Assembly: GCA_001783805.1 (NCBI GenBank) | Contig: MFNS01000002.1 | Location: 1-53,788, forward strand | From: Candidatus Levybacteria bacterium RIFCSPHIGHO2_01_FULL_40_16 | GTDB lineage: Bacteria; Patescibacteriota; Microgenomatia; Levybacterales; UBA12049 | DNA: 53,788 nucleotides | Direction of reading: 5' to 3' | Shown: piece after piece, positions 905 through 18,641 of the stretch | Layout of the letters: every line of letters starts with the position of its first letter | Numbering within the stretch: position 1 is the first letter of the stretch | The notes under the pieces: model-generated | Told to the model about the DNA's origin: nothing | The model's input: only the letters and a program-made list of their open reading frames with translations | Databases searched by the model: none | Position numbers and translations under genes: made by a program

Positions 905-1444
905 TCAAGGGAAAGCCCTTTTCATTACTTCAAAAATTATAATTCCCAAACTTACCACAACATTTAAACTTTTATTTACTCCCCACATGGGGATTTCGAC
1001 GATTTGGTCGCACATCTGCAAAGCAGATTTCGAAACACCATTGGTCTCATGACCTACCACAAGAGCTATGGGAAAATCATAATTTACTTTGTCATAAGGG
1101 ATACTTCGTTTGTCTTGTTCAACGGCTATCACCTTCAGATTTGAGATTTGAGATTTGAGATTTGAGATTGCAGTTTTTGCGTCAGCAAAATACTGCCATT
1201 CTACCCACTCGGTTGTATTGATCGAGGCTTTTTTTATCCGCGTGTGCGGTGGTGTTTCCGTTTCTCCGCAAAGAATTACTTTTTCTGCGGCCACTGCATC
1301 GGCCAAACGGAAAATAGATCCGATATTGTAAGTATCCATTACATTATCCAAAATTATATAAATCGGATTTTTCTTAATCTTTTTTTTCTCTTCCTCTGAA
1401 GATTTCGTAGTTCTTAATTCCGCCGCTCCCAATTTAATCATCAT
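905..1444 (-). CDS. SpoU/TrmH-family (SPOUT) RNA methyltransferase
   Basis: Motifs ILDNVMDTYNIGSIFRLADA, LVVGHETNGVS and EIPMWGVNKSLNV. Confidence 0.92.
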   Translation of the reverse strand: MMIKLGAAELRTTKSSEEEKKKIKKNPIYIILDNVMDTYNIGSIFRLADAVAAEKVILCGETETPPHTRIKKASINTTEWVEWQYFADAKTAISNLKSQISNLKVIAVEQDKRSIPYDKVNYDFPIALVVGHETNGVSKSALQMCDQIVEIPMWGVNKSLNVVVSLGIIIFEVMKRAFP

Positions 1445-1483
1445 TATATTTTACTATTTAACAAGTACTTTTACAAAAGAGGA

Positions 1484-2176
1484 TTATTTTTGCTGTTTTT
1501 CGGGGTACAAAGGAGCAGCTATTTTATAAACTTCTTTATATAAATCCCGCGCCAATTGAGCTCCACCAAGAACGTATTCCCTACACAGGGGACCATAAAG
1601 ACCCGAATCTAAGTCCGCCTGCGTTTCTTCAGCTCCAAAATCCATAAGCAGAAATCCTGAAGGATCCTTAATTAAAATGTTAGAATAATTGCGAGCACGC
1701 GTTTTTGACCAGATGTAGGCGCCTGCTTTCTCGGAAAGTGCATAGTCAGAATTTTCCTGACTTGACAGAGATTGTAATCTGTTAGACTCACCAACTTCAG
1801 ACAATTCATTATCGCCCACCAAGATTATCGCTGTTGCACGTTCTATGCCTTCGAGGAAATCATATCTGAATCTAACTCCAGCCATATCCTTATCGTTGAG
1901 AGCTTCTTTTATCAAATCCATAAAATATCCGTTCATCTCTACATAAATAAATTTGCTGCAAAGCGCTGGCCGCGAAAAATTAATATTATGTTTTTCGATA
2001 GTTGATTTAAATTCAGACAATCGCTCTATAGCTTCATTAAATTCTTCAGGAGCAAAATGCATCTTTGGGATAATATTTTTTACAAAATAGGAGCGTTCTT
2101 CTGTCGAAGGTGGCCCTAGACTTATTCGAATTGCCTTTAAATCAGCTCTTTCTTTCTCCAGATTTCTTTCTACCAT
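1484..2176 (-). CDS. Hypothetical protein
   Basis: 230-aa ORF filling the gap between recognised genes; no motif recognised. Confidence 0.6.
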   Translation of the reverse strand: MVERNLEKERADLKAIRISLGPPSTEERSYFVKNIIPKMHFAPEEFNEAIERLSEFKSTIEKHNINFSRPALCSKFIYVEMNGYFMDLIKEALNDKDMAGVRFRYDFLEGIERATAIILVGDNELSEVGESNRLQSLSSQENSDYALSEKAGAYIWSKTRARNYSNILIKDPSGFLLMDFGAEETQADLDSGLYGPLCREYVLGGAQLARDLYKEVYKIAAPLYPEKQQK

Positions 2177-2275
2177 AAAGCGGCTACCATTTTAACATAA
2201 TGCTACCAAGCAATCAAACATTATAGGTTTGCGGAGAGAAAAATCTTCACGTCGCTGACACATTTCTTGTCTTAT

Positions 2276-3115
2276 TTATTTCTTGGTGGATTTGGCTGGG
2301 GTTGGAGTTGGCACCACTCTTTGCAGGCTAACTGAAGCTTTTTGGAATTCACCAACTACACTTTTTACATCAATTGCATGCTGTAGGGCTGTTTGTCTGG
2401 CCGGCTGATTTTTGACAGCTGCCTCACTTGCCAATCTTGTCAAAACTTCGATTGCCCGGTTAATTCCTTTCGCGGAATTTGTGGCATTATTTAGATTGTC
2501 CGAAATTTCCTGATTTAAATCATCTATTATCTCATTCATTAAGAGATCTTCCGGCAAATTTTCTTCAGCTTTAACCTTGGCAAGCTTAAGAGCTTCTTTT
2601 GCCGCGACAACTTGCGCTTTTATTTCCCCATTAGCCTCATTCTCCAAACCGGATAGAACTTTCTGTTTTTCTTTGATTGAGTCATTTATTTCTTTTGCCA
2701 GCAAACTTATACTGCGTCCGGTTAGCTTGGCATTAACTAAATCTTCCGAAGCTCCTTTAAGATTATCCGACACCCCTTGGAGCGCAGTTCTAATTCCGGG
2801 AACATTATTCTTGGCCAACATCAATTGTAATTCTGCCAATCTTTCTCCGGCAACGCCGTTATGTATTTTGGCTTTCTGCTCGGGAGTAAATGCCAGAAGT
2901 AAACGAAATCCTTGTTTTATCCTGTCCAGAAAAAATAAAGGACTATCCGGAAGAATAAGTCCCGGTCCGTCAGAGGTCGGAGGAATTGACAATGTTGCTG
3001 CGCTGGCTACTCCCAAAACATCCTCCTGATGATTTGCCGATACGGAATTTGAAGAAAGAACAACAACTGCAGATGTCAGACTAACACTCAGTAAAAAAAT
3101 GAGAAACTTCCTCAC
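2276..3115 (-). CDS. Exported helical protein, DUF5667-like
   Basis: Signal-like N-terminus from a GTG at 3115 (VRKFLIFLLSV) and motif GLILPDSPLFFLDRIKQ...AGERLAE. The ORF-track start at 3211 overlaps topA and is probably too long. Confidence 0.65.
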   Translation of the reverse strand: MRKFLIFLLSVSLTSAVVVLSSNSVSANHQEDVLGVASAATLSIPPTSDGPGLILPDSPLFFLDRIKQGFRLLLAFTPEQKAKIHNGVAGERLAELQLMLAKNNVPGIRTALQGVSDNLKGASEDLVNAKLTGRSISLLAKEINDSIKEKQKVLSGLENEANGEIKAQVVAAKEALKLAKVKAEENLPEDLLMNEIIDDLNQEISDNLNNATNSAKGINRAIEVLTRLASEAAVKNQPARQTALQHAIDVKSVVGEFQKASVSLQRVVPTPTPAKSTKK

Positions 3116-3182
3116 AATATTTATACTGATATCTTTTTGCACATTTGTCAATACCCTAATTATTACGAGCGTTGAAGAAAAC

Positions 3183-5234
3183 TCAGGATGACAACGGAGA
3201 TTTGCCGACATCTTCTAATTTCCAAGCCGCAAATGTGCAGGCGGGGTAATTGGAACAGCCATAGAACTTGCGGCCTTTTTTGGTTTTTTTTATCACAATT
3301 TCCCCACCGTCTTTCGGACATTTCAAGCCTGTTTGCTCAACATAAGCTTTGGTAAATTTGCAATCGGGAAATCTAGAACAAGCAAAGAATTTGCCAAATT
3401 TTCCCGTTCTGATTATTAAATTTCCTTCACTACATTTAGGACATTTTTCGCCCGTTTCCTCAACTGCAATTTTTACTCTTTCCGCTCCTTCGACTTCGGT
3501 TAATTTTTTCTCAAACGGCGTGTAGAAATTACGCAAAACAAGTTCCCATTTTTTTTCTCCGATAGCAATATTATCAAGTTCATCTTCCATTGATGCGGTA
3601 AACGGAATATCGTCAATATATGAAAAATTTGTAACCAGGAAATCGCTGACGGCAATTCCGATTGCGGTCGGAGAAAATTTACCTTCTTGCCGTTCAATAT
3701 AGTTGCGGGCTTCAATGGTAGAGATAATCGTTGCGTAAGTTGAAGGCCTGCCAATTCCCTTTTCCTCTAATGTCTTGATAATCGATGCGTCATTGTATCT
3801 GGGCGGGGGCAAAGTTTCATGTTCTTTTTCCAAAACGTCGACAAGATCAAGCTTTTCACCGTTATTAAATTTGGGTAATTTATTATCAGACATTCCCAGC
3901 GGATTTACTTTCAAAAACCCGTCAAAAACAAGCACTGATCCGTTAGCTTTTAATTTATAAGAGCCTGCATCCACAAAAACCGTGGTTGACTCGACTACCG
4001 CGTCCGACATCTGCGATGCAACTGCCCGTCTCCAAATCAATTCGTATAATTTCCACCCCTGACTCCCAACTAAATTTGAAATTTGAAATTTGAAATTTGA
4101 AATTTCGCCGAAGGCAGTTGGTCTGATTGCTTCATGTGCTTCTTGGGCTAATTTTTGTTTGGCAGAATAAATTCTCGGTTGTAATGGCACATATTTGTCT
4201 CCATATTCTTTTTTAACGAAATTGATAATTGCAAACATCGCCGCCTGACCTATCGTTACGGAATCTGTTCTGTGATAAGTAATGTATCCTTCCTCATATA
4301 ATTTTTGCGCCAAACTCATGGTTCTTTTTCCATTGATATATAATTTATGCGCCGCATCCTGCTGAAGAGTTGAGGTTGTATATGGCGCTTGCGGGCTTCT
4401 GGTAGTGGCTTTCTGCAAAATATCTGCCACTGTAAATGTTTTCGTTTTTAAATCACCAACAATTCCTAAAGCTTTTTCTCCGGAGCCAATTGAAGTTTTA
4501 GTAACCTTATACTGCCCATCATACAGATCAAAAGTCTTCGCCACCTCAATCTTTTGGCCATCAATTTCTACCAGCTCGAATAATGTTTCCTCAGGTTTTG
4601 AGTTTTGAGTTTTGAGTTTTGAGTTCACCAGCGCCGCAGCGATGGTGTAGTATTTTTCTTTTCCAAACTTCTCAATTTCCCTTTCTCTTTCTACTATCAA
4701 ACGCAGGGCGACTGATTGAACGCGCCCCGCAGACAATCCCCTACGGACTTTTTTCCACAAAAGTGGAGAAAGTTTATAACCAACCAGCCTGTCTAAAACC
4801 CGGCGCGCGGTCTGCGCGTCAACCAAATTTTTATCTATGGTTCTGGGATTTTTTAGCGCCTCTTCAATTGCTTCTTTCGTTATTTCATGAAATACTATCC
4901 TATTGAATTTTTCATTTTTAACTTTTAATTTTTCATTTGAGCGGAGCATATCGGAGATATGCGAGGCGATCGCTTCTCCCTCCCTATCTGGGTCAGTAGC
5001 CAGAATAATTTGATCCGCTTTTTTTGCTTCAGTCTTAAGTTCGGCAATAATTTCCTCTTTATCCGCGACCATCTCGTATAAAGGCTTGAAGTTGTGCTCG
5101 AAATCTATGCCGATTTTGCTTTTAGGCAAATCCATAACGTGCCCCATTGAGGCTTTAATAACATAATCGCTGCCCAAAAACTTTCCAATTGTCCTAGCCT
5201 TTGTAGGACTTTCTACGATAACCAAACTTTTCAT
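3183..5234 (-). CDS. topA: DNA topoisomerase I (type IA) with C-terminal C4 zinc ribbons
   Basis: LVIVESPTKA, ATDPDREGEAI, SAGRVQS, GYITYHRTDS, AHEAIRPT and C-terminal CPKC/CSRFPDC repeats. Confidence 0.98.
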   Translation of the reverse strand: MKSLVIVESPTKARTIGKFLGSDYVIKASMGHVMDLPKSKIGIDFEHNFKPLYEMVADKEEIIAELKTEAKKADQIILATDPDREGEAIASHISDMLRSNEKLKVKNEKFNRIVFHEITKEAIEEALKNPRTIDKNLVDAQTARRVLDRLVGYKLSPLLWKKVRRGLSAGRVQSVALRLIVEREREIEKFGKEKYYTIAAALVNSKLKTQNSKPEETLFELVEIDGQKIEVAKTFDLYDGQYKVTKTSIGSGEKALGIVGDLKTKTFTVADILQKATTRSPQAPYTTSTLQQDAAHKLYINGKRTMSLAQKLYEEGYITYHRTDSVTIGQAAMFAIINFVKKEYGDKYVPLQPRIYSAKQKLAQEAHEAIRPTAFGEISNFKFQISNLVGSQGWKLYELIWRRAVASQMSDAVVESTTVFVDAGSYKLKANGSVLVFDGFLKVNPLGMSDNKLPKFNNGEKLDLVDVLEKEHETLPPPRYNDASIIKTLEEKGIGRPSTYATIISTIEARNYIERQEGKFSPTAIGIAVSDFLVTNFSYIDDIPFTASMEDELDNIAIGEKKWELVLRNFYTPFEKKLTEVEGAERVKIAVEETGEKCPKCSEGNLIIRTGKFGKFFACSRFPDCKFTKAYVEQTGLKCPKDGGEIVIKKTKKGRKFYGCSNYPACTFAAWKLEDVGKSPLSS

Positions 5235-5386
5235 AACAATTTAACAATACAACAATTTAACAATTGTTCATTTATTGTGAAGAGATTATACACGACCTGT
5301 CAAGCCCCTAAAATAAAATTCCCATGATCTTGACATGTGCCGTTATTACGTATAATAATAAGTTATAACGTCAACAGAAAACATTT

Positions 5387-5548
5387 ATGGTTAGAAAATT
5401 AATTAGAATTGGAAATTCGGTGGGAGTAACTTTGGACAAGAAAATGCTGCGCTCTATTGGCTTGGACGGAATAAGTTGGATGTGGATTGAACCAGATAAG
5501 AAGAGAAAATCAATTATTATCCGCAAGCGCGACCAAAACGAATGGTAA
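5387..5548 (+). CDS. AbrB/MazE/SpoVT-type small DNA-binding protein (53 aa; absent from the ORF track)
   Basis: My translation is MVRKLIRIGNSVGVTLDKKMLRSIGLDGISWMWIEPDKKRKSIIIRKRDQNEW; IGNSVGVTL is the swapped-hairpin signature. Upstream are TTGACA (5330) and TATAAT (5351), and an inverted repeat CGTTAT/ATAACG (5341-5370). Confidence 0.75.
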   Translation: MVRKLIRIGNSVGVTLDKKMLRSIGLDGISWMWIEPDKKRKSIIIRKRDQNEW

Positions 5549-5602
5549 GGAATCTACCCCAATTCACTTTTTTCTGATATAATCCCCTTTAATATTTAAG
5601 AT

Positions 5603-6505
5603 ATGGGAATAATCGAAGTCGGAATCAGCCTTAAGTTTGCCCCAAAAACAAATCCTGAGCAAACCGTCGGACAAATAGTTGATTATTACAATCGGATGGA
5701 GCCTAGCTTCCTTAATGTTTGGCAAGGCGCCTGTCATTTCGGATATACGGAAAAAGGAGAACGTTTTGAATTAAAGTCTGCTTTAAAAACTATGGAAATG
5801 AGGCTTGGACAAGAGCTCAATTTACATCTAAATTCGACAGTTCTCGACGCCGGTTGTGGTTATGCACGAGTTGCCACAACTATGGCTCAGCAGTTTGGCC
5901 TTAATGTTTTAGCGTTAGATCTCATACAAAAACGTCTGGACGAAGCCAAGCGCTATGCCCGAGAACAAGGTGTTGAGGAAAAAGTCAGCTTAATTCGAGG
6001 CAATTACTGCAATATGAAAAAACAAATTGCTGATTTTTCTATTGATGGAGTCTATACTATGGAAACTTTAGTGCACGCCGACCCCCTTGAGACGGCATTA
6101 AGTGAGTTCCGGCGCGTGCTTAAACCCGGTGGGAAATTAGTTCTTTTCGAATATTCAGTACCCTCATACGAGAAATTGGACCCAATACGCCGGACAATAA
6201 CAGATGCTATGGTCCGAAAAACCGGCATGCCCAGTATTAAATTTTTTGCCCACGGCGCTTTCCCGAAAATCTTGGAAGCTGCTGGTTTTGAAAATATTGC
6301 AATGAAAGATATCAGTCATAACGTCTGGCCAACTTGGCGATGGGCTTTTTGGAGAAATCTTCGAGAGAACAACCTGATGCTTTTGCCAAAAATTCTTAGT
6401 GGAAAAATTATGAAAAATACCAACTTGATGGCCGCACTGATGATTTATCCATACCGACACCAACTTAAATACAATATCATTACCGCCACTAAACCCAAAG
6501 ACTAA
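5603..6505 (+). CDS. Class I SAM methyltransferase of the sterol/tocopherol C-methyltransferase-like group
   Basis: YY...W..xHFGY N-terminal motif, VLDAGCG, DGVYTMETLVH and RVLKPGGKLVLFEY. Confidence 0.85.
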   Translation: MGIIEVGISLKFAPKTNPEQTVGQIVDYYNRMEPSFLNVWQGACHFGYTEKGERFELKSALKTMEMRLGQELNLHLNSTVLDAGCGYARVATTMAQQFGLNVLALDLIQKRLDEAKRYAREQGVEEKVSLIRGNYCNMKKQIADFSIDGVYTMETLVHADPLETALSEFRRVLKPGGKLVLFEYSVPSYEKLDPIRRTITDAMVRKTGMPSIKFFAHGAFPKILEAAGFENIAMKDISHNVWPTWRWAFWRNLRENNLMLLPKILSGKIMKNTNLMAALMIYPYRHQLKYNIITATKPKD

Positions 6506-6610
6506 ATTTATAAAACTAAGAATTTTTTACTCATCCCTAATTCCCCAAGCGCAAACAAGATGATACAACGCGTGTCAAGAGGCGGATCGCATGATATCAA
6601 AATTCCGGGT

Positions 6611-6835: not shown

Positions 6836-6905
6836 AAGATTAAATTATACAATACCTGTCAAGACTACTGGAACTATGAGCCTATTTGTTATATAATGCG
6901 ACCTT

Positions 6906-9035: not shown

Positions 9036-9041
9036 CACAGC

Positions 9042-9075: not shown

Positions 9076-10806
9076 TCAGCGGGAAAACCACTCTTCCAAG
9101 ATTTTTTTCGCGATGGGGGCGGCAACGTTGGAGCCCTCTCCTGAAGCCTCCGACAAAACTGTCACGATAATTTCCGGTTTTTCTGCCGGGGCAAAAAGCG
9201 TGATCCAAGCATGTGGTAAAGTTTCTTCCCCACCATGTTGTGCAGTTCCCGTCTTGCACGCAATTTTTATTTCTTCCTCATCTTTGAGATTTGATTTTTG
9301 ATTTTTGATTTTAAAATTAAACAGCGGCCAGGCAACTCCTCCCGCAGCACATGATTCAACCATCCCCTCCTTAATCAGGTCAGACGTCTCCCTGCTTAGA
9401 AATTTTTCATTTTTAACTTTTAATTTTTCATTTTTCAGAAGGTGGGGCTTATAAATAACCCCTTCATTGGCAATCGCTTGGGTCCAAACATTGATTTGCA
9501 AGGGAGTTGTCAGCAAAAAACCCTGCCCGATTCCATAATGATAGGTATCTCCCAAATACCAATTCTCCCCGATTGTGCTTTTCTTCCATTCTCTTGTCGG
9601 GACTAGACCCTCTTGCTCACCCAGAAGATCAATCCCTATTTTTTTTCCCAAACCGAACTTTTCTGCGAAGCCAGCAAGCTTGTCAACTCCGACTAATTCA
9701 GCCAATTTGTAGAAAAAAATGTCATTTGATCTTTGAATAGCTTTTACCACATTTACTTCTCCATCCGTCCTTCCGTATTGGGTAAAGTACCAGTTGGAAA
9801 AAGAAAAAGAACCAATTCTTAAAATTCCCGTATCTTCTATAGTAAAATTCCGATCGATAACTTTATTCTCCAATCCTGCCGCAGCGACAATCAGCTTGAA
9901 GGTTGATCCCGGAGGATATGTCCCTCCAATTGCGCGGTTCAAGAGGGGCTGACCTTCTGAATCCGATAAGATTTGTGACACGGATTTATAAGGCGTCGTC
10001 TCCCCCACGGAATATCCTTCACCCATAGTAAAAAGGTTGGGATCAAAAGGCGGACTGGACAGAAGGGCTAAAATTTCACCCTTGGGACTGGACACAATTA
10101 TGGCTCCTTTTTTGATATCTTTGGCCGCGTCAAACGCGGCTTTTTGCAGTACAATGTCCAAGGTAAGCGTAACATTCTGTCCGGGTACTGGATCTGTAAA
10201 GCCTAGTTTCCGGACAACTTTACCCAGACTATTTATTTCAACCAGTTCTCTTCCATTAATTCCGGCGAGTTTAGCTTCGTATTCTCTTTCAATTCCGATT
10301 TTCCCAATCAAATCTCCGCCCCCGTAGAGGGCAAAATCTTTATTTTTTAATTCTTCCGGAGAAATTTGTCCGATATAACCCAAAACATGGGAAAAAATGT
10401 CTTCATACGGATATTGCCTCAAGACGTCAATCTCCAAATTATTTTCTCCTTCGGATAAAAGTTTTAACGCTTCATTTTCATCTATAAGTTTTGTTTTACC
10501 GTTTAACGTCTGCCTAAATCCTGGAACATTAAAAACCAAGGGTACTCCTGTTCTATCAAAGATAATTCCGCGGGGAGCATGGATGGGAATAGTTCTTGTT
10601 CTATTGCTATCCGAAAGATTTCGAAAACTTTCTCCTTTAATAATTTGCAGAAAAAAAAGTCTTGCAACAATTAAGGTTACTGCTATTATCAAAATTACGG
10701 GCAAGATGTAGCTTCTCACGGAATAGTTTTTGTCAAAATTTCCGGGATGTTTTTGGCTTTTTTCAAGTCTTATATAGTCTCCGAATGCAGGCCCAATTTT
10801 AACCAT
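9076..10806 (-). CDS. mrdA: Penicillin-binding protein 2
   Basis: APRGIIFDR, PGSTFK (SxxK), SND (SxN) and KTGT; located in the mre cluster. Confidence 0.95.
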   Translation of the reverse strand: MVKIGPAFGDYIRLEKSQKHPGNFDKNYSVRSYILPVILIIAVTLIVARLFFLQIIKGESFRNLSDSNRTRTIPIHAPRGIIFDRTGVPLVFNVPGFRQTLNGKTKLIDENEALKLLSEGENNLEIDVLRQYPYEDIFSHVLGYIGQISPEELKNKDFALYGGGDLIGKIGIEREYEAKLAGINGRELVEINSLGKVVRKLGFTDPVPGQNVTLTLDIVLQKAAFDAAKDIKKGAIIVSSPKGEILALLSSPPFDPNLFTMGEGYSVGETTPYKSVSQILSDSEGQPLLNRAIGGTYPPGSTFKLIVAAAGLENKVIDRNFTIEDTGILRIGSFSFSNWYFTQYGRTDGEVNVVKAIQRSNDIFFYKLAELVGVDKLAGFAEKFGLGKKIGIDLLGEQEGLVPTREWKKSTIGENWYLGDTYHYGIGQGFLLTTPLQINVWTQAIANEGVIYKPHLLKNEKLKVKNEKFLSRETSDLIKEGMVESCAAGGVAWPLFNFKIKNQKSNLKDEEEIKIACKTGTAQHGGEETLPHAWITLFAPAEKPEIIVTVLSEASGEGSNVAAPIAKKILEEWFSR

Positions 10807-11962: not shown

Positions 11963-12003
11963 AAACCCATTCTAGTAGGTTTACCCTATCGTTACAAGAG
12001 GAA

Positions 12004-12025
12004 ATTATTTCAATCCCCCCACGAC
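12004..12025. repeat. Direct repeat copy 1 (displaced duplicate of the mreB 3' end)
   Basis: ATTATTTCAATCCCCCCACGAC, 21/22 identical to 13022-13043. Confidence 0.9.
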
Positions 12026-12048
12026 AGCACTGAATTGTATTTAGCCCT

Positions 12049-12999
12049 ATGGGACGATATAATAGCCAAATGATAGAGAGACAACTAACAGGCAAACAGA
12101 TATCAAGAAGGGAATTCTTAACATTCATGGGAAAAGCTCTTATGGTGTGGGTAGGAGGAGGCGTAGTTGGGTCAATTTCGGGCAAAATTTTTATTGAGCA
12201 GACAAACATTATGCTCCCCGACAGTCCTTCCGCAAGCAATCAATTAAAAGCAACAGCGCTGAATACGGAGCTCGAAGGCGAGCAAGCCTATTTCGTACCG
12301 GAGGGAAAATTTACAAAAGAATTATTCGATAAAGTCAGAAACAGTACTTATGCTATCGATACGCTAACCGATAGAGGCATCGGTTCGGGAACGGGCTGGT
12401 GCGCTCACAAAGAAGGAAACAATGTCTACATCGTAACGAATAAGCATGTCACTACCTTAGTCGATCAACCAGATGCAAAAATAATAGGTTTGAATATCTG
12501 GAGACCGAACATAGATCGGAAAAAAATTGCTCCTTTAAATGTTACAGTGGTCACGGCGGGGACAGATGATATTGCAATATTAAAATGCGAGCTAAGTCCG
12601 GAACAGGCGCAAGCAATAACTCCATTGGCTTTTCAAGACAATGCCGAAATTAAGAGCAACGAGAAAATTTTGATTGTAGGTTTTCCTGCCGAATTTAGAG
12701 ATATAACAACAGATGGCATAAATTTTCTGACCTTAGGAAATGTGGCAACGGTAGAATGGAATGCAGATAAACAAACTAGAATCTGGTACGCCCGCGGACT
12801 GTCAAATGACGGAAGTAGCGGATCGCCTGCGGTTATTCCCGACGAACAAGGCAATCCAAAGGTTGTGGGAATTCTTTTCGGCGGAGCAGACGTAATTGTC
12901 CGGGAAAATTGGAGAGAGAAAAGGAAACAGCCAATCATCGGAAGCATTACCTTGAGTATTAATCCTCTAATCGAATACGCAAGAAAAATACAGTTTTAA
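12049..12999 (+). CDS. Trypsin-like serine protease with an N-terminal RR motif/membrane anchor
   Basis: GSGTG, VTNKHV (His), DDIAIL (Asp) and GSSGSP (Ser); N-terminal SRREFL followed by a hydrophobic stretch. Confidence 0.88.
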   Translation: MGRYNSQMIERQLTGKQISRREFLTFMGKALMVWVGGGVVGSISGKIFIEQTNIMLPDSPSASNQLKATALNTELEGEQAYFVPEGKFTKELFDKVRNSTYAIDTLTDRGIGSGTGWCAHKEGNNVYIVTNKHVTTLVDQPDAKIIGLNIWRPNIDRKKIAPLNVTVVTAGTDDIAILKCELSPEQAQAITPLAFQDNAEIKSNEKILIVGFPAEFRDITTDGINFLTLGNVATVEWNADKQTRIWYARGLSNDGSSGSPAVIPDEQGNPKVVGILFGGADVIVRENWREKRKQPIIGSITLSINPLIEYARKIQF

Positions 13000-13021
13000 A
13001 TATTTTTTAAGCATATTCCCC

Positions 13022-13043
13022 ATTATTTCAATCCCCCAACGAC
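13022..13043. repeat. Direct repeat copy 2 (actual mreB 3' end, VVGGLK-stop)
   Basis: ATTATTTCAATCCCCCAACGAC. Confidence 0.9.
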
Positions 13044-14123
13044 TTTTACCCTTTGCAGGAGTGAATCGTTTTCCAGGACGCGCCCGGTTCCCCTGACAAC
13101 CGAGGTAAGGGGATCTTCGGAAAGAACAACCGGAATTTTAGTTCTCTCAACTATCAATTGATCAATCCCCGAAAGCATAGATCCTCCGCCGGTTAATAAA
13201 ATTCCATGGCTTAGAATATCATTGGTTAACTCGGGCGGAGCCTCCTGCAAAATATCCGAAATTCCCTCCATAATTTCAGCTAAAACCGGAGCCAAAGCTT
13301 CCCTGATCTCCACTTCTGTCAGGCGCAAGCTTTTCGGAAGTCCTGTTTCGATATCTCGTCCCCTGACGACTGCCATTTTCTCCTTTATTCCCTCATTTGA
13401 CTTTTCTCCTGAGCCTTCTGAACGGGCAACTTTTAACCTTGGTTGGAACGCGCTTCCTATTTTTATTTTTACATCTTCCGCAGTCTTCTCTCCCATTATC
13501 AAGCCGTGTCTCAGTCTGACATAATGAATAATCGCATTATCCATCTCCTGTCCAGCAACTTTTAAAGATTTACTTACCACAATGCCGCCCAAAGATATAA
13601 TTGCAATCTCCGTGGTTCCTCCGCCAATATCTACAACCATCATTCCGGTTGGAGCAAAAACCGAAACCTTTTCTCCGATTGCCGCGGCCATTGGTTCTTC
13701 GATCAAAAATGCTTCCCTGGCTCCCGCCGAAAGAGCTGCTTCCCAAACAGCACGGCGCTCAACTTCGGTAACAGAAGACGGAATACCGATGACAACTCTG
13801 GGGCGGGACCAGGCAACGGGAAGAACATTGCCAACTTCATGGACTACTTGAATATAGTAAGAGATCATTGCCAGGGTCGCATCAAAATCCGCAATCACCC
13901 CGCCCTTCAAAGGTGATACCGTGATAATTGACGGAGGAGTTTTTCCAACCATTCTTTTGGCCTCGGTCCCGATCGCAATGATTTTCTTGGTTTTTTTGTG
14001 CATTGCCACTACCGAAGGCTCTCTTATAACAATTCCCTTATCTTTTACCCAAATTAAAGTATTTGCAGTTCCGAGATCTATACCAATATCATGGGAAAAA
14101 TAAGAAAAAAATTTGCCAAACAT
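13023..14123 (-). CDS. mreB: Rod-shape determining actin homologue MreB
   Basis: DIGIDLGTANT, IEEPMAAAIG, VVDIGGGTTE and LLTGGGS. Confidence 0.98.
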   Translation of the reverse strand: MFGKFFSYFSHDIGIDLGTANTLIWVKDKGIVIREPSVVAMHKKTKKIIAIGTEAKRMVGKTPPSIITVSPLKGGVIADFDATLAMISYYIQVVHEVGNVLPVAWSRPRVVIGIPSSVTEVERRAVWEAALSAGAREAFLIEEPMAAAIGEKVSVFAPTGMMVVDIGGGTTEIAIISLGGIVVSKSLKVAGQEMDNAIIHYVRLRHGLIMGEKTAEDVKIKIGSAFQPRLKVARSEGSGEKSNEGIKEKMAVVRGRDIETGLPKSLRLTEVEIREALAPVLAEIMEGISDILQEAPPELTNDILSHGILLTGGGSMLSGIDQLIVERTKIPVVLSEDPLTSVVRGTGRVLENDSLLQRVKVVGGLK

Positions 14124-14131
14124 ATAGAGAA

Positions 14132-14240
14132 AATTTTCAATTTACAGTTTACAATTTTCAATAAATGATCCAATTATCAATGCTTGAAACATTGCGTGAT
14201 TGAAAATTTAATGAAAATTGCAAATTGGTAATTGCAAATT
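14132..14240. repeat. Intergenic palindromic element built from inverted heptamer arrays
   Basis: Left arm AATTTTC-AATTTAC-AGTTTAC-AATTTTC; right arm ...GAAAATTG-CAAATTG-GTAATTG-CAAATT. Related to 20042-20149. Confidence 0.75.
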
Positions 14241-14295
14241 GTTTTTATCATAGCATACTCTTGACAAGAAAATAAAATTATGTCACTCTAGATAC

Positions 14296-14790
14296 ATGAA
14301 TTTACCCGGAGAAGGAACAGCGGACAATGCCGATCTCACTCGTTCGGCTACAGGAATTTCGACACATGAACCAAGCACTGTAATTCCGGCTTCAGATAAA
14401 CAAAGGAAGGAATTTTTGTCGGGAGCAAACATTGGCTCAAAATCAATTAGCGAAATTTCCGCTAACCCCGCCCCCACAACTGAAGCTACAGGAATTGCAA
14501 GAGATATAACCGCAGAAACAGCAATAAAAGCTAATGCCGCCGCCAAAGCAGTGAAGCCGGTAGCAGAAACAGTGGTTCCAGCAATACAAACTGCAGACCC
14601 AGCAGCACCGGAAGCTGCTCAGGAACCAAAAACCAACGAACAACAGCTAGAGGAATTAAGACAAAAAATGAAACAGGCTGAAGAAGCAAGGGCTGCACAA
14701 AAACCACCGGTCATAACTCCGGACGAAGCTGTGGCCGGAATAAATCCCGATAGGTTAAAACTTGTTCAAGATCTCAAGAAATCTCAATAA
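14296..14790 (+). CDS. Hypothetical low-complexity Ala/Pro/Thr/Glu protein
   Basis: 164-aa ORF; TTGACA lies upstream near 14260. Confidence 0.55.
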   Translation: MNLPGEGTADNADLTRSATGISTHEPSTVIPASDKQRKEFLSGANIGSKSISEISANPAPTTEATGIARDITAETAIKANAAAKAVKPVAETVVPAIQTADPAAPEAAQEPKTNEQQLEELRQKMKQAEEARAAQKPPVITPDEAVAGINPDRLKLVQDLKKSQ

Positions 14791-14850
14791 GTCTCTTCTC
14801 GCAATTGCTTGTTCCAACCTAAATAATGTGTTAAGATTGGAAAATCTAGG

Positions 14851-17202
14851 ATGAAATTCCTCAATCTTTGCAACCGGATTATCGAATATTCTTTCTATAC
14901 CCTTTTTCTTCTGGTTCCGCTTGCTTTTACGAGTGCTACTTCCGAGCTTTTTGAGTTGAATAAAATGTGGCTTGTCTGGGGACTAACTATTATTATTGGC
15001 GCGTCTTGGTTTATAAAAATGATTCTTCAAAAACGAATTCTGCTTTGCAGAACACCCCTGGATATTCCAATCGGTCTCTTTCTCCTTTCTCAAATCATCT
15101 CCACTATTTTCTCTCTGGATCCGCATGTTTCTTTGTGGGGTTATTATTCCCGCTTTAACGGCGGATTACTGTCCATAATTTCCTACATTTTGCTGTACTA
15201 TGCATTTTTAAGTAATTTCGATTCTCAAAAATTATCCGCTGTAGTCCGTAGACTATTGACCATAAGCTTAATATCCGGCCTGATTGTGGCGTTGTGGGGA
15301 CTTCCCTCTCATTTCGGCTACGACCCGACTTGCTTACTTTTTCGGGGCCAATTTAATGTTGCTTGCTGGACAGATGCTTTTCAGCCAAAAATCAGAATTT
15401 TCTCAACACTGGGACAGCCTGATTGGCTCGCCGCCTACCTGGCCATTCTAATACCAATTTCTATAGCAATGGCATTAAATAATTTACGAGCTCAAAATAA
15501 TCCTGATAATAAGTATCATGTATCAGGTGTCATGTATTATGTATCTAATAAAAAAATACTACATACTACCTACTACATACTACTTACTGCATTATTCTAC
15601 GTTGATCTCCTTTTCACTCGTGCGCGCTCCGGATTTTTGGGAATTTGGCTTTCTCTTATTTTTTTCGCCGCTTTATATTATCGGATCAGCGGCAAACCAA
15701 AATTATCCATATCAGCCGAAAATCTAAAATCTCCTATTGCCATTTTGATTTTTGGACTATTAATTATTACCTTCATCATCGGCACGCCGATTAACCAATT
15801 GAATAAGTTCACGCTTGCAGGAATCGGGAGCATTTTTCAGAAACCCGTAACTACTGAAACACAGGAAGATAAAGCACCCATTCAACCATCTGATTCCGGA
15901 GGGACAGAATCGGGAGACATAAGACTTTTAGTTTGGGAAGGCGCGTTAAGCACTTGGAGAGCAAATTTCCTCTTTGGCACAGGAGTGGAAACGTTTGCTT
16001 TTGCTTATTACAGGTACAAGCCCGTTGGCCAAAACCTAACCTCCGAATGGAACTTCCTATACAACAAAGCCCACAATGAGTTCCTTAACTATCTTGCGAC
16101 CACCGGCATTTTTGGATTAGGAACTTACCTACTCATGATCAGCTCTTTTTTCTTTGTAGGCTTTAAGAAGCTCAAAGCGCAAATGTCAAAACTCAAAGAT
16201 GAAACTCAAAACGAAAAGCTTTCAGCTTTAAGCTGTAATTTTGAGCTTTGCATTTTGAGCTTTGCACTACTGGCAAGCTACGTCTCCATCTTGATTACCA
16301 ATTTCTTTGGATTTTCCGTTGTCATGACAAATGTATATTTATTTATGCTTCCCGCTTTTGTCTTTGTTTTAAGCAATACGATTAAGACAGAAAGATCCGC
16401 GCAATCCGCCAACTCATCCGCGAAAATCTACAATAACGAATCTAACAATATGTATCAATGGACCGGTATTTTCTTTATAATTCTTGCTTCATTATTCATG
16501 ATTCTAAACTTAGTCCGTTTCTGGCAGGCAGATATTGCCTATGCTTTGGGCTATAATCTAGACCAGGCCAAAGAATATCAACAAGCCTATCCAAATTTAC
16601 ACAAAGCAGTAGAACTTCGGGGAAATGAGCCTGTTTTTAAAGACGAGCTTGCCATAAATGATGCAATTATTGCCGCAGGATTGGTCTCTCAAAAGCCTAT
16701 TGATTCAACTACAAAAGAACAAGCGGTCAGCGTTGCTTCTTCTTTGGCTCAAGAAGCAATTAACACTAGCAATGAAGTCGTTTCTCAACACCCAAACAAT
16801 GTAGTCTTTTGGAAGACCAGGGTCAGGCTTTTTCTTACTCTTGCTCAAGTTGATTCCCGATATTTGCCGCGTACTCTGGATGCGGTTGAAAAAGCTTCTC
16901 TTCTTGCTCCTAACGATGCAATTATTTGGTATAATCTCGGTGTTTTATACGGACAGAATAATAATCTTGAGAAGGGAATTTCGGCTCTGGAAAAAACAAT
17001 TAAGCTCAAGCCCGATTACAGGGATGCGCGTTTTGGATTAGGCATTTTTTATCATACTGCTTCCCTGGATAAAGACAGAAAGGTAGTTGTGGATCAGACT
17101 CTAAATCAAAAAGCAATCGCCCAAATGCAATATATTTTGGATAATCTATCTCCGAAGGATGCAGATGCCCTAAAATCCATTGAGGATTGGGCCAAACTCT
17201 AA
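14851..17202 (+). CDS. O-antigen-ligase/O-oligosaccharyltransferase-like membrane protein with C-terminal TPR
   Basis: Multiple TM helices, STLGQPDWLA, FTRARSG, GTGVETF, KAHNEFLNYLATTGIFG and TPR-like WYNLGVLY...ARFGLG. Confidence 0.85.
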   Translation: MKFLNLCNRIIEYSFYTLFLLVPLAFTSATSELFELNKMWLVWGLTIIIGASWFIKMILQKRILLCRTPLDIPIGLFLLSQIISTIFSLDPHVSLWGYYSRFNGGLLSIISYILLYYAFLSNFDSQKLSAVVRRLLTISLISGLIVALWGLPSHFGYDPTCLLFRGQFNVACWTDAFQPKIRIFSTLGQPDWLAAYLAILIPISIAMALNNLRAQNNPDNKYHVSGVMYYVSNKKILHTTYYILLTALFYVDLLFTRARSGFLGIWLSLIFFAALYYRISGKPKLSISAENLKSPIAILIFGLLIITFIIGTPINQLNKFTLAGIGSIFQKPVTTETQEDKAPIQPSDSGGTESGDIRLLVWEGALSTWRANFLFGTGVETFAFAYYRYKPVGQNLTSEWNFLYNKAHNEFLNYLATTGIFGLGTYLLMISSFFFVGFKKLKAQMSKLKDETQNEKLSALSCNFELCILSFALLASYVSILITNFFGFSVVMTNVYLFMLPAFVFVLSNTIKTERSAQSANSSAKIYNNESNNMYQWTGIFFIILASLFMILNLVRFWQADIAYALGYNLDQAKEYQQAYPNLHKAVELRGNEPVFKDELAINDAIIAAGLVSQKPIDSTTKEQAVSVASSLAQEAINTSNEVVSQHPNNVVFWKTRVRLFLTLAQVDSRYLPRTLDAVEKASLLAPNDAIIWYNLGVLYGQNNNLEKGISALEKTIKLKPDYRDARFGLGIFYHTASLDKDRKVVVDQTLNQKAIAQMQYILDNLSPKDADALKSIEDWAKL

Positions 17203-17235
17203 TGTCAGCAGGCATAATTGTGGTATAATTGCAGC

Positions 17236-17796
17236 GTGTTTAAAATAGTCATTGCCCCAAATCCGGCTTTATCGAATATCGCAAAACCAGTATCCAAAGT
17301 AGACACTACTGTAATTGCGCTGATCGAAGAAATGAAGAAAACACTTGCCGCAACAACTGACCCTAAGGGGGTTGGATTGGCCGCGCCGCAGGTCGGTAAA
17401 TCCTTACGGATTTTCATCGCCAAACCTACAGATGAATCAAAGTTTTTGGTATTCATTAACCCTGAAATTATTGAAAAATCTGCAAAGGTTGATTATGTCA
17501 AGCGGCCTAAAAAATCAGGCAAAAAAGCTTCTAAAAAATTAGAGGGCTGCCTGTCTCTTCCAAACATCTGGGGATCTGTACTCCGCCCATCCTCTTTAAC
17601 TCTTGCTTATCTTGATGAACGGGGAAACAGTCACAAGCAAAAATTTTCTAACTTTTTAGCTACGATTATTCAACATGAAATCGACCATCTAGATGGAGTT
17701 CTTTTCCCGAAAAGAGTTTTGGAACAAAAAGGAACTCTTTATAAATCCTACAAAAACGAAAAAAACGAAGATGAGTTTGAGGAATTCGAAATTTAA
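17236..17796 (+). CDS. def: Peptide deformylase
   Basis: GVGLAAPQVG, EGCLS and QHEIDHLDG. A GTG start just after TGGTATAAT is chosen over the ORF-track start at 17218. Confidence 0.96.
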   Translation: MFKIVIAPNPALSNIAKPVSKVDTTVIALIEEMKKTLAATTDPKGVGLAAPQVGKSLRIFIAKPTDESKFLVFINPEIIEKSAKVDYVKRPKKSGKKASKKLEGCLSLPNIWGSVLRPSSLTLAYLDERGNSHKQKFSNFLATIIQHEIDHLDGVLFPKRVLEQKGTLYKSYKNEKNEDEFEEFEI

Positions 17797-18641
17797 TGAA
17801 AATTGTTTTCTTTGGCTCATCATCTTATGTCATTCCAATTCTTAGATTTTTAGTCAAAAACTTTGATTTAAAATTAGTCTTAACTACGGAAAAATCCGGA
17901 GGCGCGGTTCCGACCTTTTGCAAACAAAATAAGATTGAATTTTTATCCGTTCCCAATCTTTCCGACTCAAATCTTAAATCCTTAATCTTAAATCTTAAGT
18001 CTCCAATCGCCGTCTTGGCTGACTTTGGCTTAATAATTCCTCCTGAAATTCTTAATTTGTTTCCCAAAGGAATAATTAATCTCCATCCTTCGCTTTTGCC
18101 GAAATACCGGGGTCCGACTCCGGTTCAAAATGCGATTTTAAATGGAGATAAAATTACTGGTATCAGCATTATTAAACTTGATGAAGAAATAGATCATGGG
18201 CCAATCCTGGGACAAGAAAAAGAGCAGATTTTGGACACCGATACTGCCGAATCGTTATATAAAAGGCTGTTTGCAAAAGGAGCAAATTTATTACCCAAAA
18301 TATTGAATAAATACCTAGAAGAAAGCCTTAAGTTAATCGCCCAAAATCACGAAAACGCCACTTTTACCAAATCTTTGAAACGCGAAACCGGTTTTATCGA
18401 TACATCAAAAATTAAAGATCAAAAATCAAAAATTAAGTTAGAAAGGAAAATTCGCGCATACTTCCCCTGGCCAGGCGTCTGGACCCGCCTTCGCCTAGGC
18501 TATGGCGGGCAAGCAAAATTAAAAATTATTAAGTTTTTACCTTTTGGAAAACTTCAGGTTGAGGGGAAAAAACCGGTCAGTTACAAAGATTTTCTCAACG
18601 GCTACCCCGACGCTAAAAGCGTAATACTACCAATACTATAA
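17796..18641 (+). CDS. fmt: Methionyl-tRNA formyltransferase
   Basis: MKIVFFGS, INLHPSLLPKYRG, DHGPI and PWPG; directly follows def. Confidence 0.95.
   Translation: MKIVFFGSSSYVIPILRFLVKNFDLKLVLTTEKSGGAVPTFCKQNKIEFLSVPNLSDSNLKSLILNLKSPIAVLADFGLIIPPEILNLFPKGIINLHPSLLPKYRGPTPVQNAILNGDKITGISIIKLDEEIDHGPILGQEKEQILDTDTAESLYKRLFAKGANLLPKILNKYLEESLKLIAQNHENATFTKSLKRETGFIDTSKIKDQKSKIKLERKIRAYFPWPGVWTRLRLGYGGQAKLKIIKFLPFGKLQVEGKKPVSYKDFLNGYPDAKSVILPIL

Follow-up and report, generated by a model that had tools for sequence, protein, structure and literature searches.

In-frame heptanucleotide arrays in core genes of a Levybacteria genome are probably homogenized simple-sequence repeats rather than mobile-element insertions

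Background

Heptamer over-representation, arrays mostly of four units, inverted pairs of arrays and the hypothesis that polymerase slippage lies behind them have already been reported (PMC4692102). The simple-sequence repeats (SSRs) of Nostoc and Anabaena (GGGGAYT; the STRR of Calothrix) and of Xanthomonas (GGGAATC) share with the arrays described here dispersed tandem units of 7 nt, mostly about four per array, heterogeneous units with conserved and variable positions, a unit family that is specific to the genome, and frequent convergent inverted pairs that are able to form stem-loops, with slippage as the suspected cause (PMC4692102). According to PMC4692102, Mrazek et al. (2007) traced the excess of long heptanucleotide SSRs in prokaryotes to how long a piece of DNA the polymerase holds; there, as here, period 7 stands above the neighboring periods, and the work as cited concerns general statistics, not in-frame arrays or concerted slots. 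Heptanucleotide tracts are also described as driving phase variation in Haemophilus (PMC8262952). In the literature on bacteria and candidate phyla our search returned nothing relevant to in-frame heptamer repeats. A tandem repeat whose unit length cannot be divided by three would be expected either to be lost from an essential gene through selection or to work there as a switch, and the Levybacteria arrays do neither.

The window, which is the whole stretch of DNA that was analyzed, comprises 53,788 nt of contig MFNS01000002.1 from Candidatus Levybacteria bacterium RIFCSPHIGHO2_01_FULL_40_16. An earlier note on this DNA, made from the sequence alone, had described single-arm heptamer arrays inside essential genes, including an identical 33-mer in topA and mrdA, and had proposed an active insertion process with phase variation as a possible consequence.

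Results

Census of period-7 arrays

Arrays were located with TRF and with a separate period scan that used local shuffles as its control. The first 20 kb contain 17 period-7 arrays, each of about 30 to 36 nt. At the strict score 12 of them were found in 1-23.5 kb against 0.0 in the local shuffles, and the other periods between 4 and 15 gave 0 or 1 arrays each, with the exception of period 14, which is the double period. The two methods agree with the earlier note that period-7 arrays in the core genes are real, and the 7-nt periodicity scan that it had proposed, run on the window, finds enrichment at period 7 alone apart from its double. The arrays inside or next to genes are the following.

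1137..1169, minus strand: perfect (AATCTCA)4.7 array, read on the coding strand, in the SpoU/TrmH gene (905-1444)
4072..4105, minus strand: topA site 3, perfect (CAAATTT)4.9 array encoding EISNFKFQISNL
4595..4625, minus strand: topA site 2, perfect (TCAAAAC)4.4 array encoding NSKLKTQNSKP
4906..4938, minus strand: topA site 1, imperfect array of the T[GT]AAAAA family, the 'NEK' 33-mer, encoding SNEKLKVKNEKF
5234..5265, minus strand: period-8 array (AAATTGTT)4 in the 5' leader of topA, directly 5' of the ATG
9283..9312, minus strand: mrdA site B, (AAAATCA)3 plus AATCTCA, encoding KIKNQKSNLK
9401..9437, minus strand: site A of mrdA (PBP2, 9076-10806), the NEK array plus one extra unit, encoding LKNEKLKVKNEKF
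15513..15588, plus strand: two arrays in the gene of the Wzy_C/TPR membrane protein (14851-17202), one of GTATCAT and one of ATACTAC units
16217..16264, plus strand: T-rich arrays AGCTTTN / ATTTTGAGCTTTGC in the Wzy_C/TPR gene, with stop-breaking variants
17969..18002, plus strand: array 1 of fmt (17796-18641), AAATCTT units with a stop-breaking variant, encoding SNLKSLILNLKS
18404..18433, plus strand: fmt array 2, ATCAAAA units, encoding TSKIKDQKSKI
19774..19792, plus strand: short (TATTCCA)2.7 array in the M50 peptidase gene

On the forward strand the perfect arrays read (AGATTTG)4.7 at 1137-1169, (AAATTTG)4.9 at 4072-4105 and (GTTTTGA)4.4 at 4595-4625, and those at 4906-4938, 9283-9312, 9401-9437, 17969-18002 and 18404-18433 are imperfect. 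The arrays listed in the earlier note all exist, with ends that were off by 1 to 6 nt, and the octamer array that it had placed against the topA start does have period 8 and lies at 5234-5265, immediately 5' of the ATG. Absent from its list were three arrays in the Wzy_C/TPR gene (15513-15544, 15556-15588 and 16217-16264), the one in the M50 gene (19774-19792), one at the 5' end of the IVP ORF (18980-19005) and intergenic arrays at 14132-14162, 14215-14241, 19398-19426 and 20042-20149. Pfam confirms what the array-bearing genes are, with SpoU_methylase, Toprim/Topoisom_bac, PBP_dimer/Transpeptidase and Formyl_trans domains.

Nearly all arrays have 4.3 to 5.3 copies, as do those of relatives and of other array-rich contigs, and 13 of the 17 lie inside ORFs; the bias toward non-coding DNA that an STRR-like family would lead one to expect was not found. 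No inverted partner occurs within 600 nt of any genic array, and the description of these as single-arm therefore holds. The 29-kb glycan-gene island (23.5-52.4 kb) has 0 period-7 arrays at the strict score and a single weak TRF match (48303-48338, 76% matches), in agreement with the reported lack of arrays in 23.6-53.8 kb. An assembly artefact was ruled out, since assemblies from ENA, JGI, NCBI and Logan contain the arrays, each time between orthologous flanks.

Two-arm elements and tests for mobility

Three two-arm elements in the window are convergent inverted pairs, and hairpin arrays also occur in the loci L011 and L075.

14124..14248, no strand: intergenic two-arm element of inverted heptamer arrays, a long imperfect hairpin upstream of mreB
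18977..19426, plus strand: 23S_rRNA_IVP gene (18972-19376, four-helix-bundle) between inverted TCAAAnn/nnTTTGA arrays
20042..20149, no strand: two-arm AATTTNN / NNAAATT arrays in the spacer that separates the M50 peptidase gene from the next one, with a weak predicted fold

The arms that flank the IVP gene pair in 5-bp blocks with 2-nt bulges between them, and the relative L083 has an IVP gene at the intergenic position that matches the 14124..14248 element. Clearly heptameric stems surround only two of four IVP genes, which rules these genes out as obligatory partners of the arrays.

Target-site duplications, terminal inverted repeats and a conserved element consensus were sought at the arrays and none was found; the flanks are unrelated and the units differ by slot. 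There is no reverse transcriptase or transposase in 1-23.5 kb. The test for a diversity-generating (DGR) target found no RT domain among the 30 scanned ORFs of the window, only the Avd-like IVP gene, and the test for a REPIN-RAYT system found that the sole Y1_Tnp-like ORF (41789-42922) lies in the array-free island without flanking arrays. A universal (CAAATCT)n element was ruled out as well, matches in viral contigs being rare and lying in genomes with many other unit types.

Protein context of the genic arrays

The SpoU/TrmH array (1137..1169) encodes ISNLKSQISNL and overlies a native helix-strand segment, and the protein aligns gap-free to TrmH 1V2X; fmt array 1 overlies a native helix and aligns gap-free to 3TQQ; mrdA site A takes the place of a linker of about equal length in orthologues. 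The net length change relative to the native segments is 0 to 1 residue at these three arrays, which are therefore not insertions. Length is less constant elsewhere: fmt array 2 adds about 5 residues relative to solved Fmt, the slot of mrdA site B is highly variable in length, and topA sites 1 and 2 exceed those of E. coli and of some orthologues by 6 to 10 residues. The earlier note had expected the TopA inserts to map to surface loops. Site 1 is indeed the loop after the Toprim DxD helix and site 2 sits in a beta-hairpin loop; site 3, of which an identical array is found in the relative L085, lengthens a helix instead. The AlphaFold2 model of TopA, with a moderate mean pLDDT of 63, served for this loop and helix assignment only. 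The arrays of the Wzy_C/TPR gene at 15513..15588 encode hydrophobic and aromatic peptides. Levybacteria orthologues also carry GC-rich in-frame inserts that resemble Rickettsia palindromic elements (RPE).

All genic arrays had been described as A-rich on the coding strand and as keeping the frame. The frame is kept, and A-richness does not apply literally to (AAATTTC)n, in which A=T=15, or to the membrane-protein arrays. The antisense strand lacks any open frame in 8 of the 13 genic arrays, and for this reason the rule of orientation and frame is a survivorship effect of stop codons. Imperfect arrays depart from the perfect repeat exactly at the would-be stop codons.

Age, stability and concerted change

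Unit numbers were identical in two independent assemblies (99.9% identity, 0 gaps), and Logan contigs of four metagenome runs, from different samples and years, had no indels at the arrays; only assemblies and Logan consensus contigs were compared, so that rare unit-number variants could escape. With k=31, which is less than the length of an array, the Logan contigs are interrupted there. Unit-number variation, for which the earlier note had named reads as the check, was not seen at the consensus level of the four runs.

The same slots are occupied by arrays in orthologues of 50-88% identity, from which it follows that the arrays are old, and even a Patescibacteria genome whose TopA is 52% identical has arrays at topA site 1 and in the SpoU slot. 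The 33-nt slot of topA site 1 holds the NEK type in the window, L084, L085 and L089, (AAGTTCA)4.7 in L086 and a different unit from either in L083, and over the orthologues its length is bimodal, at 8-9 and 15 residues. The 120 TopA orthologues contain 104 segments with a period of 7 residues versus 2-27 for other periods. The SpoU slot has the same length in 117 of the 118 orthologues in which it was located, and its two heptads co-vary, with 3.68 of 6 matches within a protein versus 2.65 between proteins, a value that 0 of 5000 shuffles reach; fixed length with joint change of two heptads is concerted evolution. P0074 and P0079 differ by ESQK[SKVKSQK]YR between flanks that are about 95% identical, a 21-nt step, and differences of one unit (7 nt) occur in the non-coding arrays of the homologous loci L092, L095 and L097. 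Arrays of one genome resemble each other in unit family more than arrays of different genomes do (0 of 2000 permutations), a likeness partly inflated by the two-arm pairs.

Arrays are also present in some Patescibacteria (L005, L011, L075) and nearly absent from 77 other bacterial loci, the control set being 80 loci from one TopA-pattern genome scan with over-conserved patterns, mostly from distant phyla and with no close Levybacteria. Relatives were gathered one by one, separately from this set. The refuting condition chosen in the earlier note, peptides conserved in orthologues that lack periodicity in their DNA, is the reverse of what the orthologue alignments show: the 7-nt periodicity is retained and the peptide changes. 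Its view that the process acts on DNA rather than through peptide conservation gains from the same result and from the unit families shared by the loci of one genome.

The 33-mer common to topA and mrdA

The exact 33-mer occurs twice in the window, at 4906-4938 in topA and 9401-9433 in mrdA, with 0 occurrences expected even at 3 mismatches. Both copies encode NEKLKVKNEKF, exactly as claimed, and their synonymous positions match. It is found again in mreB of L088 and topA of L089, and a metagenome scan for the exact 33-mer gave two loci only, mreB and topA of relatives. L104 has a 1-nt variant in mrdA and no array in its topA, which rules out topA as the donor of the mrdA array. Between relatives the NEK array is 31-33/33 identical versus 67-80% in the flanks, and 0-3 of its 12 codons differ versus 38-63% of the same-residue codons in the flanks. 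Change that is slower than at the flanking synonymous sites needs either a directional homogenizing force or selection at the nucleotide level. The sequence of the 33-mer itself is largely set by the unit family and by the avoidance of stop codons in that phase.

Discussion

Proposed misalignment in a 7-nt register

On balance we lean toward the view that the arrays are lineage-wide heptanucleotide SSRs, homogenized by misalignment in a 7-nt register and by a frame filter, and that they are not mobile-element insertions. The analysis directly established the periodicity and stability of the arrays, their orthologous slots, their concerted change, the stop filter and one 21-nt step; that misalignment is the mechanism, and why the register should be 7 nt, are the parts of the model that we infer. 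A replication or repair process that misaligns DNA in a 7-nt register would keep copying a unit onto its neighbors, candidate processes being slipped-strand mispairing, transient misalignment and template switching, and the copying may now and then extend to similar nearby arrays. Unit number would be free to drift in non-coding DNA, where inverted two-arm hairpins could arise, and in genes only those outcomes that spare protein function would survive. Orientation and phase would have to be stop-free, and length changes would be limited to 21-nt steps of three units and seven residues. Arrays would settle where 7-residue periodic peptides are tolerated, that is in loops, linkers and amphipathic helices, and a unit with a latent stop would take a stop-breaking variant in every third unit. 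A slot would then keep its place and length for a very long time even as its units are replaced in concert. The topA/mrdA 33-mer is the near-unique stop-free form of T[GT]AAAAA units in its phase, its identity perhaps strengthened by conversion between co-oriented arrays of the mreBCD-mrdA-dprA-topA cluster.

Several points weigh against misalignment. For simple slippage, the gain of three units from a seed of only 1.7 units is hard to achieve at one stroke, and intermediates of a single unit would shift the frame of core genes. The patchy distribution of the NEK array over slots and genomes (L104 mrdA, L088 mreB) would also fit copying between loci, and the model accounts neither for the 7-nt register nor for the figure of about 4-5 units even in non-coding DNA.

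Other readings of the arrays

The active insertion process of the earlier note corresponds to the copying and pasting of cassettes, in which a dedicated machinery would use a donor copy to place preformed arrays of about 33 nt in slots or on top of them. This machinery could be a templated process linked to a retroelement or to Avd/IVP, a structure-specific transposase or the uptake of short DNA. Such copying would explain an exact imperfect 33-mer in three genes (topA, mrdA and L088 mreB), in L089 topA and, as a 1-nt variant, in L104; an array far better conserved than its flanks; array k-mers in dozens of other contexts of the same metagenomes; inverted arrays that enclose IVP (Avd-like) genes; and further in-frame inserts of the orthologues that are common to different sites. 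We nevertheless consider it unlikely. Target duplications and terminal repeats are lacking, there is no recombinase or reverse transcriptase near the arrays, and units vary between slots. At several arrays, which coincide with native segments, the length changes by 0 to 1 residue, stop avoidance alone nearly dictates the NEK sequence, the slots are old and orthologous, and near-identical strains have no presence/absence polymorphism.

It is somewhat more doubtful that the arrays are functional nucleic-acid motifs under selection, either protein or RNA sites with a 5-6-nt core in every 7 nt or elements of mRNA translation or decay, of which the genic copies would be the same signal in tolerant coding segments. 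The conservation of slot position and length over deep divergence, the slow change of the NEK array relative to adjoining synonymous sites, the constant 6-nt core with one variable position (GATTCAN in L075, GATTTAN in L011), the frequent position directly 5' of start codons and the folding of two-arm versions as stems all speak for such a role. Units, however, differ so widely across slots and between orthologous slots that no single reader sequence is conserved, the 29-kb island functions without arrays, and no candidate binding protein was found.

With similar doubt we entertain a dedicated activity in array-rich lineages that rewrites DNA in a 7-nt register, perhaps tied to the Avd-like IVP genes in array stems, as a templated 'periodizing' mutator rather than passive slippage. 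It would write or rewrite arrays of about 33 nt in place and at constant length, even over native segments of essential enzymes, and the lineages concerned may be Levybacteria, some other Patescibacteria and possibly Nostoc, Xanthomonas and GC-rich contigs.

It is very improbable that selection acts on the proteins, favoring heptad-like peptides that are amphipathic or rich in Lys, and that the DNA periodicity is a by-product. Peptides of the ISNLKSQ type do put Ile/Leu at heptad a/d positions, and the SpoU and Fmt arrays coincide with native helices; but periodic DNA also occurs in non-coding regions and on both strands, the periodicity of the DNA persists in orthologues whose peptides vary freely, the copies do not differ at synonymous positions, and the co-variation of solvent-exposed positions in two heptads has no structural rationale. 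Phase-variable contingency loci toggled by the gain or loss of 7-nt units, as the earlier note had thought possible and as perfect tandem repeats in ORFs with a unit not divisible by 3 would allow, can be dismissed almost entirely, since unit numbers are the same in three assemblies and four runs, arrays have 4-5 units only, lengths are fixed over >100 orthologues and the genes are single-copy housekeeping genes (TopA, PBP2, Fmt, SpoU/TrmH) rather than genes of surface, host-interaction or restriction-modification functions.

Significance

Over long evolutionary times the Levybacteria arrays keep their slots and their lengths, write over stretches of native folds and undergo concerted change. 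The 7-residue periodic segments of topoisomerase I, PBP2, MreB, Fmt and a TrmH-like methylase are thus imposed by a process at the level of the DNA, which is an unusual evolutionary route for essential proteins. These candidate-phylum bacteria offer a clean natural system in which mutational homogenization can be parted from selection through the stop filter, the 21-nt quantum and the turnover of units. One caution for practice is that k-mer assemblies fragment at the arrays, which can also be mistaken for "shared mobile sequences".

Comparison with known repeat systems

The palindromic elements of Rickettsia, which Ogata et al. reportedly described in 2000, are said to be 100-150 bp long, to lie in the reading frame of protein genes, to share a family consensus and to be clearly present or absent. 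They are like the present arrays in that a repeat is translated as extra surface segments of essential proteins and the same repeat is found in unrelated genes, whereas the Levybacteria arrays are tandem repeats of 30-36 nt without a palindrome and often without net insertion. Cryptic simplicity and compensatory slippage, reportedly treated by Tautz et al. in 1986 and by Hancock and Dover in 1990, mainly for eukaryotic genes and rRNA expansion segments, likewise involve slippage-like turnover that homogenizes short motifs in functional sequences, including both arms of stems, but in no fixed 7-nt register. In-ORF repeats of Borgs have unit lengths divisible by 3 and a varying copy number, whereas the Levybacteria unit is 7 nt, its copy number fixed and its slots ancient. 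The two are alike in that perfect repeats in ORFs, described as fast-evolving in Borgs, give low-complexity peptides (PMC9879509). REP/REPIN-RAYT systems are described as short dispersed repeats in hairpin doublets and singlets, with a small gene between inverted copies (PMC3116915), a layout that recalls the two-arm elements; unlike them, the Levybacteria arrays have no palindromic consensus or adjoining RAYT, and the flanked gene encodes a 23S_rRNA_IVP four-helix-bundle protein. The 7-bp contingency loci of Haemophilus share a unit that is not a multiple of 3, and the Levybacteria tracts are short, lie in housekeeping genes and have no length polymorphism that we saw.

The arrays of Nostoc and Xanthomonas are G-rich, have been discussed as G-quadruplexes and are 89-93% intergenic, whereas the Levybacteria units are A/T-rich and without G-tracts, so that a G-quadruplex account of the preference for four units cannot be general. 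Unlike those arrays, most copies in the window lie in housekeeping genes, in frame and in conserved slots, with stop-breaking variants and 21-nt quantization. The heptanucleotide families of Nostoc and Xanthomonas are the closest known, and the Levybacteria arrays are a new coding-region form of such repeats.

Genes and repeats in the window

The best relatives of TopA belong to Levybacteria or Levyibacteriota (Microgenomates, candidate phyla radiation). At its start the window has the 5' end of a 16S rRNA gene; four tRNAs lie at 22.8-23.6 kb. Pfam searches bore out the SpoU, TopA, PBP2/mrdA and Fmt assignments that the earlier note had made from the sequence alone, and also identified DprA, MreB and M50 peptidase. 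The main genes are:

905-1444, SpoU_methylase
3183-5234, TopA
9076-10806, PBP2/mrdA
14851-17202, Wzy_C and TPR membrane protein
17796-18641, Fmt
18972-19376, 23S_rRNA_IVP (IVP) four-helix-bundle gene

All the heptamer arrays listed in that note were located, with coordinates off by only a few bases, and others were found in the Wzy_C gene, the M50 gene and intergenic DNA. At a strict score the first 23.5 kb (the core) contains 12 period-7 arrays versus 0.0 in local shuffles, and only 0-1 arrays at other periods, so the enrichment is specific to period 7. The typical array size is ~4-5 units, non-coding DNA included. The exact 33-mer shared by topA (site 1, 4906-4938) and mrdA (site A, 9401-9433), which encodes NEKLKVKNEKF and is called here the NEK 33-mer, occurs twice in the window, with 0 occurrences expected even when three mismatches are allowed.

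The lack of arrays beyond the core also held: at the core density of ~0.3-0.8/kb, 23.5-52.4 kb should contain about 10 or more, and its strict-score period-7 count is 0. This island (23.6-52.4 kb) encodes glycosyltransferases, methyltransferases, a sugar epimerase/dehydratase, DegT aminotransferases and one transposase-like ORF, around which no arrays were found:

41789-42922, minus strand, Y1_Tnp-like ORF with an IS200-like Y1_Tnp domain (26.9 bits) and a C-terminal SH3_3 domain

The island resembles the core in composition, with a tetranucleotide correlation of 0.94-0.96, versus 0.97 between the two halves of the core. The absence of arrays would fit their slow build-up in genes of long residence and a later arrival of the accessory cluster.

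Repeats of other kinds are also present. The gene at 52433-53788 (minus strand), which runs off the window end and has no Pfam match, carries ~24-nt (8-residue) tandem repeats with the consensus TCCGCCAGCGAGTCGATTTCGCCG and higher-order periods of 48, 72, 84 and 156 nt, a repeat kind different from the heptamers. A hexamer array, (ACCCCA)6 at 21208-21249, probably encodes a Pro/Thr linker in a 525-residue ORF (20178-21755) that has no Pfam match and is followed by an ORF with a Cohesin domain. GC-rich perfect palindromes resembling terminator hairpins lie in AT-rich intergenic DNA at 125-150, 375-395 and 9040-9075; the one between dprA and mrdA reads CTCGACCCCGGGGTCGAG.

Relation of the arrays to the encoded proteins

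The arrays had been proposed to result from active insertion, and comparison with reference proteins suggests that often they are not insertions. Solved TrmH structures (1V2X: "dlheafrflkergftvyatal") can be aligned to the SpoU array with no gap, so this array overlies a native helix-strand element. Fmt array 1 aligns gap-free to the solved Fmt 3TQQ, and PBP2 site A stands in for a linker of equal length (within one residue) in orthologues, a linker that is longer still in solved PBP2s. Extra length was found at Fmt array 2 (~5 residues more than in solved Fmt) and, relative to E. coli TopA, at TopA sites 1 and 2 (6-10 residues) and site 3 (~4 residues). An AlphaFold2 model of TopA, of moderate confidence, places sites 1 and 2 in low-confidence loops and site 3 inside a helix.

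The A-rich orientation and preserved frame of the genic arrays are explained by survivorship. A heptamer array passes through all three reading phases in turn, and in 8 of the 13 arrays within genes the TGA inside TTTGA closes every frame of the antisense strand. Each strand of the NEK 33-mer has a single open frame (2 of 6 overall), and its antisense peptide would be the hydrophobic NFSFLTFNFSF. In the two NEK arrays, in fmt 17969 and in Wzy 16217 and 16238, the consensus unit hides a stop, and the periodicity is broken once in 21 nt, precisely where that stop codon would fall.

The T[GT]AAAAA family, which includes the NEK arrays, obeys the phase rule [free][TG forced][TT forced], so that NEKLKVKNEKF is almost fully fixed once this family fills a slot in that phase. 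The exact 33-mer was also found in mreB of the relative L088 and topA of L089, and a 1-nt variant in mrdA of L104, whose topA has no array. Its recurrence across genes can be convergent, possibly aided by conversion between arrays that share an orientation within the conserved mreBCD-mrdA-dprA-topA cluster; transposition is not required. Change in the NEK array, where 0-3 of 12 codons differ, is slower than at synonymous sites nearby (38-63%), and the fixed-point logic of stop avoidance could lie behind this.

Conservation of array slots and their length

Period-7 arrays were also found in five relatives (L083-L087, TopA identity 74-80%) and in three more distant Patescibacteria (L005, L011, L075); the remaining 77 control loci, from other bacteria (~1.2 Mb), contain almost none. 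In every Levybacteria locus with an array at TopA site 1, the slot is 33 nt long, its boundaries are shared and its content differs: NEK type in the window, L084, L085 and L089, a perfect (AAGTTCA)4.7 in L086 and another unit in L083. In the SpoU gene, slot length is identical in 117 of the 118 orthologues with a located slot (73-100% identity), and the paired heptads shift together (ISNLKS/ISNLK, IKNLKL/IKNLR, IKDLRF/IKDLR, INNLQL/INNLR). Heptads match at 3.68 of 6 positions within a protein versus 2.65 between proteins, a value reached in 0 of 5000 shuffles that ignore relatedness; the paired residue changes are evident directly from the residue table. Among 120 TopA orthologues there are 104 peptide segments with a 7-residue period versus 2-27 at other periods, and units resemble each other more within than between genomes (0 of 2000 permutations, a signal to which two-arm pairs add). 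The slots are old and orthologous, with content turning over in concert. The refuting condition set in the earlier note, peptides conserved in orthologues that lack DNA periodicity, was checked, and the outcome favours a DNA-level process: the orthologues retain the periodicity while the peptides vary.

In L087, TopA site 1 (~1130-1205 of the locus) holds an in-frame octamer two-arm element (an inverted pair of arrays), with TTGGGT/ATTGGG arms facing (CCCAATTACCCAAAAA)2, a predicted hairpin of -25.6 kcal/mol and the encoded peptide SRDIGSLGGNKNPITQKPNYPKT.

In-gene length steps come in 21-nt quanta, with single-unit differences where frame is irrelevant. A TopA pair with ~95% identical N-termini differs by a clean 7-residue indel, ESQK[SKVKSQK]YR, TopA site-1 lengths are bimodal (8-9 and 15 residues), and the length difference among homologous non-coding arrays of L092, L095 and L097 is a single unit of 7 nt.

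Other inserts were seen in TopA. At the protein level, short secondary inserts rich in Pro/Ala/Gly/Arg/Ser break the heptamer arrays of P0011, P0071, P0012, P0003, P0035 and P0043 (for example PASPRGE, PLRSEAS, TRSQRG and PVPSGG), several being exactly 7 residues (21 nt). Long GC-rich in-frame inserts (RQPRVSDDARL...SESGLPP; GPxxSFPPxSAP...VRAVGSPS) recur at different sites in different Levybacteria, one set at site 2 of P0003, P0011 and P0058 and site 4 of P0055, another at site 2 of P0023 and P0039 and site 4 of P0008. The copy in L085 (in the region 5031-7361) is 141 nt long with 64% GC in a 40% GC genome. These long inserts look like RPE-type mobile in-frame elements.

Two-arm elements and IVP genes

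The window contains three two-arm elements:

14124-14248, long imperfect hairpin 5' of mreB in the divergent region (-35 kcal/mol, z -5)
18977-19426, arms 18977-19017 and 19379-19426 enclosing the IVP gene
20042-20149, predicted fold weak

The arms of the second pair in 5-bp blocks with 2-nt bulges, leaving the IVP gene in the loop of the stem. Each of the 4 IVP genes examined is enclosed in a long stem, and only 2 of these stems are clearly heptameric. L083 has three IVP genes in 18 kb, all within long stems, one of them inside a 16S rRNA gene, in its 3' part. An IVP gene of L083 also occupies the intergenic position matching 14124-14248, a hairpin that may be the ORF-less shell of an IVP element. 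Period-7 arrays are even denser in GC-rich IMG/VR contigs (L091 [GC 0.62], L093, L094, L098), several lying directly 5' of start codons; the 9.3 kb of L091 contain 12, built of CCCTCAA, AATCTCA, GCCATTG and CCTTCAT units.

Stability across samples

Two contigs of the same species from other samples match the window at 99.9% identity along 8.1 and 3.8 kb; the alignments are ungapped and the arrays identical. Logan contigs from four runs of groundwater and soil sampled in 2015-2016 have no insertions or deletions. This comparison of assembled contigs works at the consensus level, with rare variants below its reach. The arrays are stable and not switching, and the phase variation thought possible in the earlier note found no unit-number change to support it. 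The Logan contigs (runs X1, X2, X5 and X7; window 900-20200) stop at almost every array. In these runs the array k-mers have a word depth 10-100 times that of the flanks and dozens of unrelated continuations, so the same array sequences are present in many other contexts of those communities. The arrays fragment k=31 assemblies and join unrelated contigs.

Possible mechanism and comparison with known systems

We lean, with some reserve, towards misalignment or slippage in a 7-nt register, which would homogenise tolerant segments in situ, translation filtering its products. A difficulty is that growth from a 12-nt seed to 33 nt would have to avoid lethal intermediates. A dedicated process that copies or writes the arrays is the leading alternative, though an unlikely one, followed by selection for a periodic nucleic-acid signal, which we consider rather unlikely. 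Protein-level selection, facing peptides that vary in their slots, is very improbable, and phase variation, facing constant unit numbers, is scarcely credible.

By the features tested, the arrays do not fit a contingency locus, an RPE or MITE, a DGR target or a REPIN system. Our literature search found no description of such arrays in candidate-phylum genomes or essential genes, where they appear to be new; heptanucleotide repeat families themselves are already known. The closest described systems are those of Xanthomonas and Nostoc, which are described (PMC4692102) as mostly four heterogeneous units, with frequent convergent inverted pairs, 89-93% intergenic, without known function and suspected to arise by polymerase slippage. 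The Levybacteria arrays share this anatomy, but their units are A/T-rich, most copies in the window are in coding sequence and in frame, they occupy orthologous slots whose length is constant, and they bear stop-breaking variants.
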